Origin: Leucoraja erinacea
Lineage: Eukaryota
Reading direction: 5' to 3'
Assembly: GCF_028641065.1 (NCBI RefSeq)
Contig: NC_073406.1
Location: forward strand, 7,192,001-7,256,000
DNA length: 64,000 nt
The notes beneath the pieces were generated by a model that saw only the letters and a program-made list of their open reading frames with translations, had not been told where the DNA came from and made no database searches. Positions within the stretch are counted from its first letter, which is position 1, and the number at the start of each line of letters is the position of its first letter. The position numbers were made by a program, and so were the translations under genes. Below, in pieces: positions 134-64,000 of the stretch.

Positions 134-1376
134 CTAAAGCCGCAGAAAGGGTCAAACCCAGGTCTCTGGCACCGAGAACGTAAGGCTGGAAGGCAGATAG
201 ACCCCATGCCATCAGAACAGAAGTAATTGTGAATGCTGCACCTTCCCGACTTGGAAATATCTTTCATCAATGCCCCACCAGAGTCCAAATATTTAATACC
301 CTGCAGCATTCTGCTGGCACCTTCACTGGAAAGCTGCGGTTCGAGGCAGCATTCCACCATTACATTGTCAAGGGCAACAATCGTACAATGGCCAACAAAC
401 ACCTGCACTGCCAGAGACACCCACCCCCCGCACCCAGTGAATGGGACAGTGGGCAGAAGATACAATCATGATGGGCACCCCTAGTTTTCAATGGCACTAC
501 GTACCAGCACCTCTAAAAATTAAAAAATAGATTTTTAATTTGATATCATTTAGATTTTTTAATGCTCTTCACTTTTTAAATTATTTTTATGAGAAAAAGA
601 TTTAGAACAGTTTTAAAAATAACACTTTTTAACCTAGACGTCGGAGCCCCTTAAACAGCTTAAAGGTGGTCAGACCAGCAGCCAAGATTAATTATTTGAT
701 GTACAGCAGCCAATAGTGTCACATGAACCTTTGTATCAAAGGCTGTGACTATCAACATCGTTATATTATTTTACGGTTACGTGACATGCATGTTTGGTGA
801 ATGTTCTAGTGTGTATTATATTAAATATCATATTTAATTTTTCATCTTGCATTGATTTTAAACTGTTTGCTTATTAGTTTATTCAATTGGAAGTTGATTG
901 GTGATAAATCAATTGATCATAGTTGAGGCAGGTAAGGAACATTTAGACAGGTACGTAGATAGGACAGGTTTAGAGGGGTATGTAGGCAGGTGGGACAAGT
1001 GTAGATGGGACATGTTGGCCAGTGTGGGCGAGTTGGGCCGAAGGGCCCGTTTCCACGCTGTACGACTCAAAAATCCATACTGAAGAGATTGGGGAACATA
1101 CAAGGAAAAACAAAATGTTGATAAATGTAGCTTCATTTTTAATTGATATTCGTGCTGGCACCATTTTGTCGACAAAAAAAAAAGCACAGTGGGCATCACA
1201 AGTGGATGGAGGGTAAAGGGAAGAAGCTTTTACAAAGCGCTGATCAGATGCATTGAATTTCTGTGCCAAATCCTGCCTCAGATATTCACGCAAACACATC
1301 CGCTTTCCAGTGCAGGTTGACTGTCCCACGGGTTACTGTGTGGTCACTGTTTGCTTGCACTGAGGTGAGATATTCA

Positions 1377-1814
<438 letters not shown>

Positions 1815-2217
1815 TCAAACGCACTTGCTTAAAAAAAGAAATGATTTGCTAACACCATGCGCTCAGGATTTCAAAGATTTGGGTAGGTTCTGGAAAAAAG
1901 AGTGGGAGGAAGCACTCACTATATGTGACTAGAATTCAATGTAATCCAGATGCAGAAATGTGCAAGGGACTGAACTAGTTTTAAACCAGAATCTTAGAGA
2001 GGTTGGAGGAGTTGACTTAGCTCCAGCCCCCACATCCCATATGGGATTCATGCACATGGCCAGTTTGTGAACTATACACCCAGACACAGCTCAAAGGCAC
2101 AAGCTCTGTTCATTTACTCACTCGGAAATAATAAGACCATCTTTGAGCTTGGTACCAAGCCCAGCCCAGATAATCTGCCACAGGCCAGGAACTGAACCAG
2201 ACACCTCCTTCCATCTG

Positions 2218-2435
2218 TTCAAGAAGGAACTGCAGATGCTGGAAAATCGAAGGTACACAAAAAAACTGGAGAAACTCTGCGGGTGCAGCAGCATCTATGG
2301 AGCGAAGGAAATAGGCAACGTTTCGGGCCGAAACCCTTCTTCAGTCTGAAGAAGGGTTTCGGCCCGAAACGTTGCCTATTTCCTTCGCTCCATAAATGCT
2401 GCTGCACCCGCTGAGTTTCTCCAGTTTTTTTGTGT
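2218..2435. mobile_element. Penelope pLTR-derived fold-back element with hammerhead core on both strands
   Basis: 94-bp inverted arms (2251-2344 / 2346-2439); core CTGAAGA-AGGGTTTCGGCCC-GAAAC-GTT; 15-bp TSD ACCTCCTTCCATCTG at 2203-2217 and 2436-2450. Confidence 0.8.
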
Positions 2436-3000
2436 ACCTCCTTCCATCTGCCCTGGGAGGCTGGGAGGCACTCAGCAGGTGGGCCGCCAGGAGCAAAGAG
2501 GGACCCGGTGAGGAGGGACCTGGCAGGCTGCAGCCACGTGCAGCAGCAGGGCTGGTTCACCGCTGCGAGAAGATAAGTGGACTGAGAACATTTGAAACCT
2601 TGTCGGTGCCAGAAATGTGCGACTCGTTGTGTACTGCCTCGGTGAAATCTGCTGTATGGTTTTACCAGATTGTATGCAAAAACAAATAATTTCACTGAAC
2701 CTAAATGCATGTGACAATAAAGTAGCGTTGGATCATTGACTGGTCCTCGATATGAGATGGTCCTGCACACACACAGGTGTCAGCGGTTATGGGGAGAAGG
2801 CAGGAGAATGGGGTTAGGAGGGAGGGATAGATCATCCATGATTGAATATATCTGATCTATGGTAGACTAGATGACTGAATGGCCTAATTCTACTCCTATT
2901 CCTTACGACCGCACAAGTGGTTCACCCGCCAATGCGCGGGGGGACACTGCAACGCAATGCATCCACAGAGAAATCTTTCAAGATGATGTTGATTACTTAC

Positions 3001-3127
3001 ATTTCTTCTTTCGCTTGCCACCTTTCCTCCTCCTTTTGCCCAAACCGGCCGATCCCTCGGATCGCACCGAGCAGCTGTGGATGCTGGCACTGTCCAGGTC
3101 AGATTCACCATGGTCATCTTCATCACT
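3001..3127 (-). CDS. CHD5: CHD5 exon (SDEDDHGESDLDSASIHSCSVRSEGSAGLGKRRRKGGKRKKK)
   Basis: gcag| acceptor, |gtaagt donor, 127 bp. ESDxDSASIHSxSVRSE motif of CHD5. Confidence 0.93.
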
Positions 3128-3883
3128 CTGCGGCACAAACACAAGTACAAGGAGACTTCTAGCTTTCAGGCTTCCACATTTCCTGCTTTATCTCTTATCA
3201 AGTAGCAGCTTCAGCTACACCAATATTGCTTTAGCCCCTGCTTCAAACAGCATCTTCTGGCAGCTTGTTCCATACACCCACCACCCTCTGTGAAAAGGTT
3301 ACCCCTCAGGTTCAAGGCGACATTAATCCCCACCTCCGAGCCATGTACAGACAGAAGATTTTAAGCTGGAAAGATTACAGAGAAGATTTACAAAGATGTT
3401 TCCAGGACTTGAGGGGCTGTTTCCAGGACTAGAGGGAAAATCTGGGCTAGTTAGGATGTTATTCCATGGAGGCAGGAGGTTGAGGAGTGATCTCATAGGG
3501 GTATATAAAATCCCGAGGGGAATAGATAGGGTGAATGCAAACTGTCTTTATTCCTACATAGGGGAATCTAGGTTTAAGATGAGGAGTGGAAGATTTAATA
3601 GGAATGTGAAGGGTAACTCTTTATCACAAAAAGGGTGGTGGGTATATGGTACGAGCTGTCAGAAGGTGTAGTAACAATATTTAAAAGTCACTTGCACAGA
3701 TACAAGGATAGGAAAGGTTTGGAGGAACATGGGGCAGGCAAACGGGACTAGTTTGGATGGGACATCTTGGTCAGCATGGATGGTTGGGCTGCAGGGCCTG
3801 TTTCCATATGATTCCATCAGGATTGGAAAGGATGTTCCTCCATCAGGAACATCACAATTTAAAACAGAACAGTCCAGTCTTAC

Positions 3884-4014
3884 CGAAGATTCTTTTTTCC
3901 GTTTGCCACTGAATCCTCCAAGTTTGATTTTCAGGGGCACCATCTTCTTGCCCTTTCCTTTCTTCTTCAGTTCTGCAGCCCGAGCACTTTTGCTTTTCTT
4001 CCGCACCCCCGGGC
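3884..4014 (-). CDS. CHD5: CHD5 exon (PGVRKKSKSARAAELKKKGKGKKMVPLKIKLGGFSGKRKKESS)
   Basis: acag| acceptor, |gtaaga donor, 131 bp, phases consistent with neighbouring exons. Confidence 0.93.
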
Positions 4015-5108
4015 CTGTGGACAGGAGGCGACAACCATAGTCATACCCCGAATGCTGTACGCTCACCTGCAACAATTGGGTCTCTCCACCCCCTCTCAGT
4101 TTCAAGCCCTGTTGTCCTGATGTGGACTCTCTGTGGATTACATCCCTAGCCACTGGAGTTGATATTACTTGTCCACAATCACCCTTCCGTCATGAACAAG
4201 CACAGAAGTTGATCACTGCCAGGCTATTATCACAGAGATGTTACAATTGATCCGAGCTCAACCCTGCCCTCACCAAATTCCGCACACTAACACCCATCCC
4301 AGTCATCAGAACCCTTCAGTGATACAACACATAGAGACGTTGTGTTGGTGTCAATTCTTCGGTGGGTTCGTCAAAATAATGCATCTTGCAAATATTTATC
4401 CTGACCCTCCCTGAAATTCACCGCTCAGGCGGTTATTCTGAGTCACTACAAATTTCTTCCTCAAAATGAATCCAGGAGACCCTCAATATACATTGCTCGC
4501 CTCTAGTTAATGGCGATTCTGAAATGGCCGTGGCATTACATGGAACGCAGAACAGTACAGACACAAAATGCTGGAGTAACTCAGCGGGTGAGGCAGCATC
4601 TCTGGAGAGAATGCCTCACCCGCTGAGTTACTCCAGCATTCTGTGTCTACCTTTGACTTTAACTGGTATCTGCAGTTCTTTCTTACGCAGAACAGTACAG
4701 CACAGGAACAGGCCCTTCTGCCCACAATGTCTGTGCTGTACATGATGTCAGGTAAAACTAATCTCTGCCTGCATGTGATTCTGATCCCTCTGCTCCCTGT
4801 ATATCCATGTGCCTATCCAAAAGCCTCTTCAATACCATTATCATATCTGCCTCCACCACTACCTCAGGCACCTCATTCCAAACACCAACAACCCTCTGTG
4901 ATAAAAAGAAAACTTATCCTGCACATCTCCTTTAAACTTTGCCCCTCGCGTCTTAAAGGTATGTTCTCTAGTCTTTGACATTTCCACCCTGGGGGAAAAG
5001 GTTCTGACTGTCCACCCTATCTATGCCTCCCATCATTTGATACTTCTTCAGGTCGCCCCACCATCTGTGGTGTTCCAAAGAAAACAATCCAAGTCTGTTC
5101 AACCTCTA

Positions 5109-5492
<384 letters not shown>

Positions 5493-7150
5493 TTAGTAAA
5501 GGAAGTTGCTGGAGTAACTCAGCGGGCAAGGCAGCGTCTCTGGAGAAAAGGAATACGTAACGCTTTGGGTCGAGACCCTTCATCAGACTGAAAGGATTAT
5601 TAAAAGATTCAGATAACCCGAAGGAAACAATTTAATACTGACAGACAATTTCAAAGTAACTAATACCTACATAGTACCTTTAAAGTATTTAAGTGGCTCA
5701 AAGCACTTCAAATGAGGGTTACCAGATCAAAATTGACAACAGTGTGAAATAATCACAGTGAGATGTTTACATTGCATTACACAGGCCATTCAGTCTGCTG
5801 GTTAATTCAATGTTTAGACTCGCTAGGAGACGCTTTCCATCCACCATGTTGCCCAATCAATGCTTTCTTCTCATTTCTTCCACTAGGAAGCTTTCCTACG
5901 GTACATCTCAAACCATTGGCTCAATTATTCTGAATTATTAATTCTGAAGGGTCACGACCCAAAATGTCACCCATTCCTTCTCTTTAGAGATGCTGCTGGT
6001 CCTGCTGAGTTACTCCAGCATTTTGTGTCTATCTAAAGTTTTCCATGAGCTCAGAGTAGTGCCGAATAGAGACTGGAAGCCGTGTTCTTTCAAGGTTGCA
6101 GGAGCAAAGCCTTGGAGCGTGTTAAATTAAAAAAAAACAAGTTTTCTCACGCTGCCTCCAGCTCTTTTACCAAGAATCTTAAATTTGACCTGTTACCTCG
6201 AAGTAGCAGCAGTAAGAAGGGAAATGTGGTGAGGGGAACTCCCAATGTGGTGAGCAAGGTGAGAAACACACGAGAGACCAAGCTGAAGTGTCAACTTTGC
6301 CCCACACATTGTTGACCTGCAAACTATTTCTAGTATTATCCATTGTTATACCAAGTCTCAACATTTACATATTTTGCTTTTATAGAGAAGCTATGTTTTC
6401 CATGGCAAAACAAAGGCATGAGATAAAGTGAAATGAATAAAAGTATTTTTAATTTGCACACAGAATATTGACTTCTTGGTGCAAGATGATTAAACAGTAA
6501 GAACCAAAAATAGAATCAGTTAATCCAGGGTTACAGAGACTGAGCAGGAGTTCAATTAATGGGATAGTCCTAACATACCCGCTGCTCGGGCTCAATGGCC
6601 TCCATCTGTGCTGCACCGTTTAATGTTATATAAATAGATAGGTCACAGCACACCTCATATAATCAGAGAAAACCAACACTAATTCTAGAGGGTACTTACT
6701 TTTAGAATGTTAGTTGGCAACAAAATATAACCAACTTTTCACTCCAATTACCAACCTGCTCTCTAACGAAGACATCTCGAAGAAGATGCAAAGTCCTTTA
6801 ACTGAACACTCTAACAATGTAGTGAATGATTGATCCCGGCAGTTAATGTCATTCATACTGATGCAGAAGACAACTCACTGTGTCAAAACCACGGCACTTC
6901 AGCGCCACACTGGGCCCAGAAGTGCATCTAATGCTTATTAGTCCAGACCGGATTGGACTTTCTGAATTGAAATGGATTCGGTTCCCTTTTAACAAGATTA
7001 ATTCTCTTGCTTTTTGGAATGCAACAGAACTGCATGGAACATTGAAGCAACCCGACACTTAATAGGACAGAACAGCTGAAGCAATCCAAAACAAAATTAA
7101 CCCTTTCAAAGAATGGATTTAAAAATAAAATATTCTTAATTAGGCTTAAG

Positions 7151-7608
7151 AGGGCGGCACGGTGGCGCAGCGGTAGAGTTGCTGTCTTTCAGTAATAGGA
7201 CAGCACTTTCAGCACCAGAGACCTGGGTTCAATCCCAACAACGGGTGCAGTCTGTACGGAGTTTGTACGTTCTCCCCGTGACCGCGTGGGTTTTCTCCGA
7301 GATCTTCGGTTTCCTCTCACACTCCAAAGACGTACAGGTTTGTAGGTTCAGCAGCATCTATGGAGCGAAGAAAATTTTCTTCGCTCCATAGATGCTGCTG
7401 CACCCGCCGAGTTTCTCCAGCAATTTTGTGTACCTTCGATCTTCCAGCATCTGCAGTTCCTTCTTGAACAGGTTTGTAGGTTAATTGGCTTGGTACAAGT
7501 GTAAATTGTCCCTAGCGTGTGTAGGATAGTGTTAATGTGCGGGGATCGCTGGTCGGCATGGACTCGGTGGGTCGAAGGGCCTGTTTTCGCGCTGTATCTG
7601 TAAACTAA
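7151..7608 (+). mobile_element. tRNA-derived SINE (HE1/V-SINE type)
   Basis: GGCGGCACGGTGGCGCAGCGGTAG A-box head, GGTTCAATCCC B-box at 7226-7236, V-type core, AAACT tail; related copies at 8218, 17953, 19670, 37219 and 60845. Confidence 0.8.
7349..7467. mobile_element. Same fold-back family, short hairpin, nested in a SINE
   Basis: 15-bp TSD ACAGGTTTGTAGGTT at 7334-7348 and 7468-7482; terminus CAGTTCCTTCTTGA shared with the 2218 element. Confidence 0.8.
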
Positions 7609-7611
7609 TTA

Positions 7612-7809
<198 letters not shown>

Positions 7810-8217
7810 TCACTCCCAAATCCAGAAATCTCCGCAACTCCCCATCCCTCCACCAAGCTCCACCTGACATTCAAAAGCAAACACTGGCAAAGAACCAGAA
7901 CACCTGTCTCTCCCTCTGGACATATGGGTACAAGCCACATTCAACAACTTTGCCCTGGCCCAGTCAGTATTTACAGAATGTTCTGCTTGTATTCCTGACT
8001 TTACCTGATTATTTCTTCCACTCTCCCCATCACTAAATACAGGCGACTGTGACAGTGGAGCCAAAAAACAAACTGCTGGAAGAAGTCAAAGGGCTAGGCA
8101 TCGTCTGAAACATTGCCACCCTTCTGCTTCCACAGATGCTGCTCGACATTCCATCCGTTTGTGTTTTGCTCAAGATTACGGCGTCTGCAGTTCCTTCTCT
8201 CAACATTGTGATAATTG

Positions 8218-61144: not shown

Positions 61145-61675
61145 TTAGGAATCAAAGATGAATTTCCAGGGCAGTTTTGTGAGAGAAACCCAGGAGAAAA
61201 ATCATATTCTATTAAATGAAATTGTTTATTTTCAAATTTTCTTTTAACAATTTGCTTTCTCAGTTGCAACAATATTGGGGATGGAAACTAAGACTCTGGT
61301 GCAGAACCGCACAACTCTGGTTCACACAAAGGGTGGTGGGTGCATAGGACGAGCTGCCAGAGGAGGTCGTTGAGGCAGGGACTGTTGCAACATTTAAGAA
61401 ACAATAAAATAGGTGCAGGGATAGAATAGGTTTAGAGAGATATGGAGAACACGGATAGGCGATGTTTCGGGTCAGATTGTTACCTATCCATGTTCTCAAG
61501 AAATGCCGCGGAGTTTTACTCCAGCAGTATGTGTGTCTTTTTTTTTAAATGCAATAAAGGTTTGGCTTACCAAAGGAAGCCCAGATTGGATGAGTGGGAG
61601 CAACGGAACAGATGGTGCTTTTGAAAATGTAACCGGACACAGACAAAGGTGATTTTGTTGAGTTTTGTTTACTAG

Positions 61676-61801
61676 GCAGTAAAGGAGCTACAGACGTCCA
61701 CACGAGAGGCCATCATCCTCCTGAAGGCCATGATTGATGAGGTGAGACTCAATGCAAATGAGGAGGAGTCGTCCATCAGCTCACTCTTCAATAGTATGCA
61801 G
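61676..61801 (+). CDS. RNF207: RNF207 exon, coiled-coil (AVKELQTSTREAIILLKAMIDEVRLNANEEESSISSLFNSMQ)
   Basis: actag| acceptor, |gtgagg donor, 126 bp. No further exon was recognised before the window end. Confidence 0.92.
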
Positions 61802-62110
61802 GTGAGGCAGCAAGTCAATCATTTAAATGACTGTGGCTATTGCTGATGGTGAGGGTCTAGACACACAGACTGTTTTTCATTTCCTTGACTATTCTAGTGA
61901 TCCCCTGGTTGTTTCCCCATTGTCTACCACTGTGAGCCTGAGCTCATCCATAACTCAGCGTCCTAATTTTGAAATGATCAACTCGCATTCACCTTTGTCC
62001 TCGTAGCCTACGCTGTGTCCTGGCCCTTCAACCCTCGATTGTTAAATTGTCATCTGTTTTCAAACCCTTCATGATGTCCATGTCCCTGCAACCTCATCCT
62101 GTCTTACAAC

Positions 62111-62254
62111 TGGTGATTTTTTAGTCGACAAAAATGTGCCGGTACGCACCTGAAATAAACATACATGTTTTGTGGACGGACAACAAAATAACGACATTGA
62201 ACTTCTTAGAAGCATCATTAAACTGTACAAAATACCGTCACAAAAAAAGCACTG
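62111..62254. mobile_element. hAT-type MITE
   Basis: Right TIR AAAAAAAGCACTG, degenerate left TIR TGGTGATTTTTT, perfect 8-bp TSD CTTACAAC (62103-62110, 62255-62262); related remnant at about 1145-1190. Confidence 0.7.
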
Positions 62255-63311
62255 CTTACAACCTTAGAAATCGTTATGACCCTCCAGTTCACCCCTAACT
62301 TTCATCAATCCACAATGTGGGGGCTGGGCCTTCAATCATGCAGGCTCTACACTTAGGAATGCCCTCTCTGTGTCTTTCTTCAACTTAAGACACCCCTTAA
62401 AACCAACGGCATTCATTTAAGTTTTTGGTCAACTGCCCTAAAATCTCCAGATGTAGTCTGGTATCAAATTTTGTTTGGTCACATTTCTGTGAGGTGCATT
62501 GTATTGTTGCATTGTAGACAAGGTGCTACATCAATACGTTGTTCTTGTTTCTACTTTCTCCCGGCATCCATCCTTCACCAAGAAAATACAGGGTCCGGTT
62601 GTTCTACAATCTCTCCAAAATTCTTTCACTCTGAGCCCAGACAGCAGGGGATATAGACATCAGGGAAAAATGTTCCTTGTCTGTTAGTAATCCCAATTAA
62701 TAACCTGCAACTGGGAGGCTAGTAGTGATCCACCTCCCTTACTGTTAATTGAAAGACAAATCAGATAGACAATCTTGAGATCCAATGTTGGAGTTACTTG
62801 AGCCATGAGCCCCCAAGGCTCTCGCCATGAAGCGTTTCCTCACCACATCTCTGCGCCTGTTGTGAATTAATTCATAAAGACATTAATCATTGTCCATGAA
62901 CCTTGTGACCAGTTGAAAGATAAAAGGTGAGGAGATGATGCTTGTGTCCAGCAATTCTGATCCTTTTAAAAGCAGCTGCAATCTCCTTGTTGTTCAGTCA
63001 TGTTTCAGCCATGGTGCGATGAAGCGGTGGCCTTTGCGTGATGACAGAGATACATACCAATCCGAGGCATCATCACTTTATATAAACTCCATCTGAATTC
63101 ATGCTTCCAAATTAAAAACAACAGGACGCAGAGATAAATAGGAAGAAAAAACATCACAGCAATTAAGTTTGAACAAAGTCAGAAGGACCCCAAACCCGAA
63201 GCGTCGCCTAGCCATGTCTTCCAAAGATGCTGCTTCACCCGCTGTAAACCAGCATTTGTAGTTCCTTGTGGAGCAATTAGATATGCCGCATTAGGCCTCA
63301 GAGCCAATAAA

Positions 63312-63440
63312 CAGGGCTGCCAACTCTCACGCATTGAGCATGAGAATCACGCATTACGCCAAATTCTCACGCTCTCACGCTGATCACAAATTTCTCACGC
63401 TCTGTCGTGAGAAATTCTGTGAAATTTCAAAACTCATATC
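63312..63440 (+). mobile_element. Left end of a non-autonomous DNA transposon (hAT-like CAGGGCTGCCAAC terminus)
   Basis: Terminus CAGGGCTGCCAAC followed by several TCTCACGC/GTGAGA subterminal repeats; right end not seen. Confidence 0.6.
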
Positions 63441-63485
63441 AACCGCATGGGCCGCAGGTGTTGGAGAGCTGGGGCAGAGGGGGGG

Positions 63486-63753
63486 ATGGAAGCAGAAGCA
63501 GCGGCGGGGACAGATGCGGACAGGGAGCCGGGGCTGGCGAGTGTTTGCCAGACTGGCGAGTGTTCGCCGGGCTGGTGAGTCGCTCGCTGCAGCTCTGGCC
63601 ATGGAGCAGCCTCAGTGCAAGAGTCCCGGGCCGTCGGAAGCGTTGCGCTGCTGCCGTGAGAGTCTCTGTGCCGAATTCACCCAGGTGACCGGCATGGATC
63701 AGGCTGCGGCTCGGTGCATCCTGGGAGACAACCAGTGGCTGCTGGGAGTTAGT
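63486..63753 (+). pseudogene. TDP2: TDP2 (TTRAP) exon-1-like fragment, N-terminal UBA-like domain
   Basis: GCCATGG at 63601 opens MEQPQ..RESLCAEFTQVTGMDQAAARCILGDNQWLLG|GTTAGT, resembling TDP2 RRxLCxEFxxVxxxDxAxAxCxLxENDWxxE, with a donor at the expected exon-1 end. An upstream ATG at 63486 is shifted out of frame by a 19-bp tandem unit. Confidence 0.7.
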
Positions 63754-64000
63754 ACCAAGCACTGGGTAGAAACGGTGGAAGATAGTGGCCTTCAAATGGG
63801 GGTGGTTGGAGAAAGCATCCTGCTTGCCTGCTAGATTTTCACTTACTGTAACTGCAGGAAAAATGTTCCCGATGTTGGGGGAGCTCAGAACCAGGGGTCA
63901 CAGTTTAAGAATAAAGGGTGGGCCAGTTAGGACTGGGATGAGGACAAAATGTCTTCACCCAGAGAGTTGTGAATCTGTGGAATTCTCTGCCACAGAAGGC

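Follow-up and report, generated by a model that had tools for sequence, protein, structure and literature searches.

Transposon capture of host genes in animals was surveyed by Tan et al. (2021), who reported 370 Pack-TIRs in 100 genomes, with four multicopy cases (1.4%) in the part of the report available here (PMC8277862). In the same part, the frog element Pack-hAT-N8_XT carries the 5′ UTR of CAPSL and has three derived copies, and Ssk-FB4 has four. Since the survey demanded a unique top hit, as stated in its available text, high-copy families may have been missed (PMC8277862). In the bat Myotis, HelibatN3 holds the 5′ part of NUBPL from the promoter and 5′ UTR through the first exon into intron 1, and a thousand copies are given in the sections of the two papers available here (PMC4224331, PMC4778049). 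For cut-and-paste elements of animals, multicopy gene capture has been reported to be infrequent, with few copies per case (PMC8277862), and in vertebrates the capture of first exons at high copy is documented for bat Helitrons.

The 64,000-nt stretch of Leucoraja erinacea DNA analyzed here (the window) carries one copy of an element that joins a Pack-TIR-type end with a cargo design and copy number like those of HelibatN3. We consider it very probable that this is a high-copy Pack-type element of skates, likely non-autonomous and moved by cut-and-paste (probably hAT), which captured the 5′ end of TDP2 and then multiplied, and that the window copy is probably inactive. The family is more notable than the window copy. 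As in the animal Pack-TIRs described in the available text, host-gene DNA that includes intron-side sequence adjoins a TIR-type end, the parent gene lies on another chromosome, and copies lie in host introns, mostly as retained-intron passengers (PMC8277862). Unlike them, the skate family shows no fewer than 128-153 left junctions and probably numbers in the order of a thousand copies in several skates; the animal Pack-TIRs were described with two ends, whereas the skate element is known from its left end alone. As with HelibatN3, a host 5′ UTR, first exon, donor and part of intron 1 were amplified, which is a mobile exon-trap design (PMC4224331, PMC4778049, as far as their available sections describe it). 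In contrast, HelibatN3 is a Helitron (5′ TC, 3′ CTRR) and the skate element begins with CAGGG followed by subterminal repeats; the coding cargo is 6 codons in HelibatN3 and a whole UBA domain in the skate element; and promoter activity and exon trapping were demonstrated for HelibatN3 in the section available (PMC4778049), whereas splicing was not seen for the skate element and its promoter capture is putative. The search of papers returned no description of the element, and the main texts of two batoid genome papers contained no occurrence of "TDP2" or "hAT". The family may already be in Repbase or Dfam as an unlabelled consensus.

The ATG at 63601 (context GCCATGG) opens 49 codons (147 nt), which run up to a phase-0 donor, GTTAGT, at 63748. 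An earlier note on this DNA had read a TDP2-like UBA N-terminus here, and the protein comparisons agree. The 49-aa peptide matched Pfam UBA_4 (E 9.6e-5; 22.5 bits, only just above the cut-off of 21.8), the PDB chain 6Q00, which is the TDP2 UBA (E 7e-4), and Leucoraja TDP2 (P0002; 81%), with 43 of 49 aligned residues identical and the window exon 5 residues shorter. Against Amblyraja radiata TDP2 (P0004), 41 of the 49 aligned exon-1 residues were identical. The TDP2 homology breaks off exactly at the donor. When TDP2 residues 55-360 were searched in the 64-kb window, where just 250 nt are visible 3′ of the donor, no match to further TDP2 exons was obtained (best E 3.8). Because the homology ends at the donor and sequence other than exon 2 follows, exon 1 was copied here at the DNA level and not as a retrocopy, as the earlier note had also proposed. 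The 105 nt from the donor to 63852 are, we infer, derived from TDP2 intron 1. The window exon is like the TDP2 genes of Leucoraja and Amblyraja in its exon-1 peptide and in the stop of homology at the donor, and unlike them in that the catalytic domain is absent, the linker before the UBA helix is shorter, and the unit is repeated rather than single-copy.

The similarity to TDP2 starts at 63486 or earlier, 5′ of the ATG at 63601. In this leader, a 19-nt tandem duplication (63534-63580) shifts the ATG at 63486 out of frame, and a 30-codon upstream ORF results. The open frame 63295-63834 was rejected as a gene, since it needs the 19-nt duplication and is absent from three reading frames of other copies (P0001, P0003 and P0128). 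None of three window reading frames was present in the protein collection by exact look-up, and Rfam gave no match on 61500-64000. The features are collected in Table 1.

Table 1. Features of the TDP2-carrying element and its surroundings in the window.
Feature	Position	Strand	Basis or remark
RNF207 coding exon 6, encoding aa 210-251 and ending in a phase-0 donor	61676..61801	+	Element sits in the intron 3′ of this exon
Candidate target-site duplication on the left side, 8 nt if the element is hAT	63304..63311	+	Adjoins the left end
Left terminus, TIR-like, starts CAGGG	63312..63324	+	Repeat family starts exactly here on the left
Subterminal stretch holding direct and inverted TCTCACG motifs	63325..63421	+	Motif counts; 63311-63400 alike to the L001 and L002 ends
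Linker within the repeat family, either transposon DNA or DNA from upstream of TDP2	63422..63485	+	P0003 crosses the linker into the exon in one frame; contig 63422-63559
TDP2 5′ leader / N-terminal extension	63486..63600	+	Weak match to Amblyraja TDP2 aa 8-28 (E 0.24); strong match to P0001 and P0003
TDP2 exon-1 coding copy (UBA, 49 aa)	63601..63747	+	Pfam, PDB and TDP2 protein matches
Splice donor GTTAGT and likely start of TDP2 intron 1	63748..63852	+	Same read-through in P0001, P0003 and P0128
5′-truncated, very high-copy LINE-like repeat	63853..64000	+	Window copies 72-83%; joined to the element in other copies

At the left end, TCTCACGC occurs at 63325, 63365, 63373 and 63393, that is, four times within 76 nt, together with inverted forms. 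In the whole window, five occurrences were observed against 0.69 expected, and five were reached in none of 100 shuffles. An inverted partner of the left end (up to 2 mismatches) was not found within the window, nor was a second copy of the candidate target-site duplication; the element runs beyond 64000. The terminus pattern was also searched in three contig collections. No match was obtained in the genome contigs, a collection without skate genomes, or in the viral contigs, and three short loci (L001, L002 and L003) with unrelated flanks in all three cases were found in metagenome contigs. The ends in L001 and L002 are about 77-78% alike to 63311-63400. These two loci, L001 (reverse, from 221) and L002:709-895, hold a related end that is 93% alike between them over about 190 nt, with different flanks and without TDP2 cargo. 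L003:1936-2245 is a 310-nt element that starts with the common left end and has an imperfect inverted end on the right; the inverted partner of the left end (14 nt, 86%) lies 284 nt away. Its flanking letters agree at 4 of 8 positions, and its right side abuts a LINE-like fragment. The exons around this element belong to a gene that we take, from its reading frames, to be a WNK-like kinase, and going by these exons the three metagenome loci look like fish DNA.

The exon itself holds a copy of the subterminal motif: 63323-63331 and 63655-63663 form a perfect 9-nt inverted pair, and 63402-63421 is alike to 63651-63670 in direct orientation (16/20), a marginal likeness whose score was reached by 13 of 300 shuffles. 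This copy could have aided capture or deletion; one joint in run X1 is at 63400-63653. Just left of the element, 63200-63272 is a short interspersed repeat with many partial copies in the window.

To describe the family, 22 sequencing runs were listed, and contigs or reads of four of them, X1 and X6 (DNA-type) and X15 and X22 (RNA), were compared with 61600-63920 at 85% likeness. Fourteen runs of seven coded organisms contained 0.49-0.64 of the words of 63290-63855 (depth is known for two of the 14). The word share was under 0.2 in X17-X21. In X1, the flank 61600-63272 was covered by one contig with a depth of 20.5, four other letters and one gap. Over six bins of 63316-63783, the summed depth in X1 was 46,730-171,318, which is 2,280-8,357 times the flank, and in X6 it was 2,375-6,245 times the flank; at seven single sites, the ratios were 378-8,061 (X1) and 359-6,226 (X6). 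Summed contig depth, which varies about twentyfold along the element, gives an order of magnitude and no copy number. The exon is deeply covered, at about 5,000 times the flank, and 64-86 contigs show the majority letters at 63725-63750.

A firmer lower bound is given by the contigs that part from the window sequence exactly before 63312, 128 in X1 and 153 in X6; these are counts of termini, some of which might be without cargo. The consensus agreement of their flanks was 0.35 and 0.34, respectively. Thus, the flanks left of 63312 are unrelated to one another. Furthermore, three reading frames with the exon and read-through past the donor were obtained in the protein searches, and the residues common with the window exon were 45/49 in P0001, 42/49 in P0003 and 36/49 in P0128. 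These three could partly be orthologues. A representative-protein search with P0001 gave two matches, P0128 and, without relation to the element, the bacterial-like repeat protein P0136; neither is a chimera. The TDP2 exon-1 unit is most likely a family of hundreds or thousands of copies in skates.

The end and the cargo are linked in other copies. P0003 starts in the linker at 63423 and continues through the exon and intron in one frame; therefore, the subterminal side is tied to the cargo on another contig. Overlapping contig pieces tile 63316-63912. Among 15 of 54 joints, internally deleted copies connect the terminus with the cargo, at 63335-63691, 63400-63653 and 63422-63526 in X1 and at 63393-63527 in X6. 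Among the contigs listed, none spans the whole element or the junction 63272-63312; the X1 and X6 contigs end in the repeat 63200-63272 (record 1 of X1 at 63272), and thus the left junction is not bridged. From this linkage, the high copy and the sharp left end, it follows that the unit is a Pack-type mobile element rather than a native gene or a retrocopy, and this supports the suggestion of the earlier note more strongly than it was made there.

On the right, the repeat from 63853, presumably the 3′ region of a CR1-type LINE, is joined to the element elsewhere as well, as seen in a contig covering 63774-63912 and in a joint at 63819-63863 (depth 255). Among the loose-end sites listed for X1 and X6 (six each, the weakest with 61 contigs), none lies between 63313 and 63852, and a right end with many flanks is therefore unlikely in that interval. 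The element continues past the window, which stops 147 nt into the LINE-like piece.

We then consider the class of the element. Two features expected of Pack-TIRs are present: internal host-gene DNA other than an intronless retrocopy, and, for multicopy cases, an end-plus-cargo unit at many unrelated sites. The survey's definition also asks for cargo between the two ends of one TIR element, and for a parent locus with DNA identity of 90% or more whose flanks are free of the transposon (PMC8277862); here the parent TDP2 was compared as protein, and a transposon end may conceivably adjoin the parent gene. The designation as a TIR element is based on one end, with no right end, target-site duplication or transposase seen. 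Tc1/mariner and piggyBac were rejected, because insertion at TA or TTAA is not observed: none of four left junctions follows TA or TTAA, and the last two consensus letters of the left flanks are AG for the 128 contigs and TG for the 153. Helitrons were rejected as well, since the visible end, CAGGG on the + strand or a CCTG finish on the - strand, fits neither 5′ TC nor 3′ CTRR. In the available sections of two reports, hAT ends are described with short imperfect TIRs (10-25 bp), 8-bp target-site duplications and clustered subterminal repeats (PMC3942097, PMC10368747). The left end of the skate element works like a hAT end, and membership in hAT itself is fairly probable. A TIR superfamily other than hAT would be an unlikely agent of the capture and amplification. 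For such a superfamily it can be said that the CAGGG end, the subterminal repeats (a hAT-type feature found here which is not exclusive to hAT) and the missing TA or TTAA target do not single out hAT, and that the terminal 13-mer had no literature match in a transposon context. However, a short imperfect TIR with clustered subterminal repeats suits the hAT ends described in those sections (PMC10368747, PMC3942097), and hAT accounts for 208 of the 370 animal Pack-TIRs in the available part of the survey (PMC8277862).

The window copy lies downstream of six RNF207 coding exons on the + strand, which encode aa 1-251 of 650, the last ending in phase 0 at 61801. Mismatches inside these exons numbered 0 in Leucoraja erinacea, 1 in Amblyraja and 2 in Rhinoraja. 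Skate RNF207 isoforms of 596-597 aa are annotated which have a different N-terminus joined at the second coding exon (around 57261); they are without the first RING exon and have no relation to the element.

The earlier note had proposed a UBA-RNF207 chimera. Its observation that the element donor and the preceding RNF207 exon are both in phase 0 is correct. In such a chimera, the window copy would serve as an alternative first or cassette exon, and the UBA would precede RNF207 aa 252-650 in one protein that lacks the RING and B-box. The sense orientation, the two phase-0 donors, the intact 49-codon frame and the GCCATGG context favor this, as does an AG at 63410-63411 followed by an in-frame, stop-free cassette of 336 nt. 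Measured against the consensus, real RNF207 donors in the window likewise reach only 5-7 of 9, and HelibatN3 operates in this way according to the available section of PMC4778049. However, the donor of the window copy has changed. In both DNA-type runs, 99.6-99.98% of the depth at 63725, 63746 and 63750 shows the A of the other copies. With A at 63750, the standard hexamer GTAAGT stands in the other copies; thus, at donor positions -2 and +3 the window copy no longer agrees with the family. In addition, the ATG at 63486 makes an out-of-frame upstream ORF, and the AG at 63410-63411 is preceded by G, not by C or T.

The RNA data also speak against a chimera, and no splice junction from 63747 was found in them. 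Among the polyA reads of X22, 63746 is covered by 34 and 63750 by 32, so that 32/34 run through the donor; both strands are represented, and neither a listed joint nor a pile-up of starts or ends is seen. X22 comes from the more distant organism I, about 6% of the run was read, and it holds 0 RNF207 reads. In X15, which is from organism C and may be without the insertion, a 2217-nt spliced RNF207 contig matches 61675-61802 only, i.e., the exon. A contig of X15 with a depth of about 240 covers 63746 but not 63750 and could be a spliced copy; the drop between these sites is, however, equally simple as native TDP2 mRNA. Furthermore, the exon is in 0 of 127 fetched RNF207-type proteins, and a longer-protein search, which is a weak search, gave two candidates, neither of which is chimeric. 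We thus regard the proposed chimera as very improbable, and the copy in the RNF207 intron is probably a mutated, inactive passenger of the Pack-type family.

The variation among copies bears on the history of the family. In X1, the non-majority depth at 63746 and 63750 was 1.5-1.7 times the flank, as expected with this single copy in organism A. In X6, the non-majority depth at 63746 was 0.8 times the flank; this would fit the presence of this very insertion in organism C. The 19 listed element pieces differ from the window copy by 6.5-13.8%, and the flank of organism C differs from the window by 4.9-6.8%. Since the divergence of the element exceeds that of the flank, the amplification probably predates the split of organisms A and C; this age is rough, because the longest pieces are biased to diverged (old) copies and the cargo is CpG-rich. 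At an indel near 63634, three of six listed pieces had the short form of the window, two were about 9 nt longer and one was 9 nt shorter. Over 63534-63571, none of the three pieces covering most or all of it had a 19-nt gap, whereas the duplication is missing in the three reading frames P0001, P0003 and P0128. The indel and duplication differences point to at least two subfamilies.

Spread of the composite by retrotransposition via the LINE 3′ piece, as an SVA-like passenger and not by DNA transposition, is hardly credible. Two things would suit this explanation: other copies of the element, too, are joined to the LINE-like piece that starts at 63853, and a right TIR is not in view. Against it, at least 128-153 copies begin at one first base of a TIR-like end; the depth does not rise steadily toward the 3′ side (7,653 times the flank in the terminus bin, 2,280-2,751 in the middle and about 5,000 in the exon); and the intron side is retained.

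A native nested TDP2 gene, a one-off segmental duplication or a misassembled junction is just as implausible: only 250 nt are visible after the donor and 63272-63312 is unbridged among the contigs listed, but the exon depth is thousands-fold, the residual depth of X1 at 63746 and 63750 fits one real copy, and native TDP2 differs in exon sequence and sits on a separate contig of chromosome size (TDP2 and RNF207 on 139.7 and 28.2 Mb contigs in Leucoraja, and on 151.6 and 32.2 Mb contigs in Amblyraja), so that the window exon is not the native gene. A functional TDP2 gene at the window locus was rejected in view of the high copy; the lack of a phosphodiesterase exon in the short visible stretch is a weak argument alone.

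For the capture and spread by the Pack-type element, the following course may be envisaged. In one event in a skate ancestor, the TDP2 5′ end would have been taken up as DNA, by template switch or gap repair. The element would then have been mobilized in trans by a transposase predicted to bind the terminal and TCTCACG subterminal motifs, and at least two subfamilies, with and without the 9-nt indel in the exon, may have arisen. Amplification would have taken place mostly before the split of organisms A and C, with putatively neutral decay of the copies since.

The skate family links the two pictures of gene capture outlined at the beginning, and it suggests that similar families may hide in repeat libraries. 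Its many copies also provide natural material for two questions: with what frequency host genes take up a mobile exon together with its donor, and whether the parent DNA-repair gene is affected by so many TDP2 5′ ends. In practice, the family will confound read mapping, primers and annotation of skate TDP2 exon 1. More tentatively, and with a chance that we put well below even, a hAT-type element may have spread a TDP2 start site, a UBA exon and a strong donor to thousands of sites in skate genomes, with some of its copies acting as exon traps for host genes. If so, this would be the equivalent of bat HelibatN3 among cut-and-paste elements, with a whole protein domain being shuffled, and it would supply new first exons or N-terminal ubiquitin-binding domains.

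RNA of the family is present in X15, at a depth of 397-1,227 against 13.9 for RNF207. It is low per copy and, in X22, derives from either strand, which is what intronic passengers should show. In the polyA reads of X22, the terminal bin 63316-63393 was strand-biased (84 v 18) and exceeded in depth the remainder of the element (3-20), perhaps because the end is part of a transcript in one orientation.
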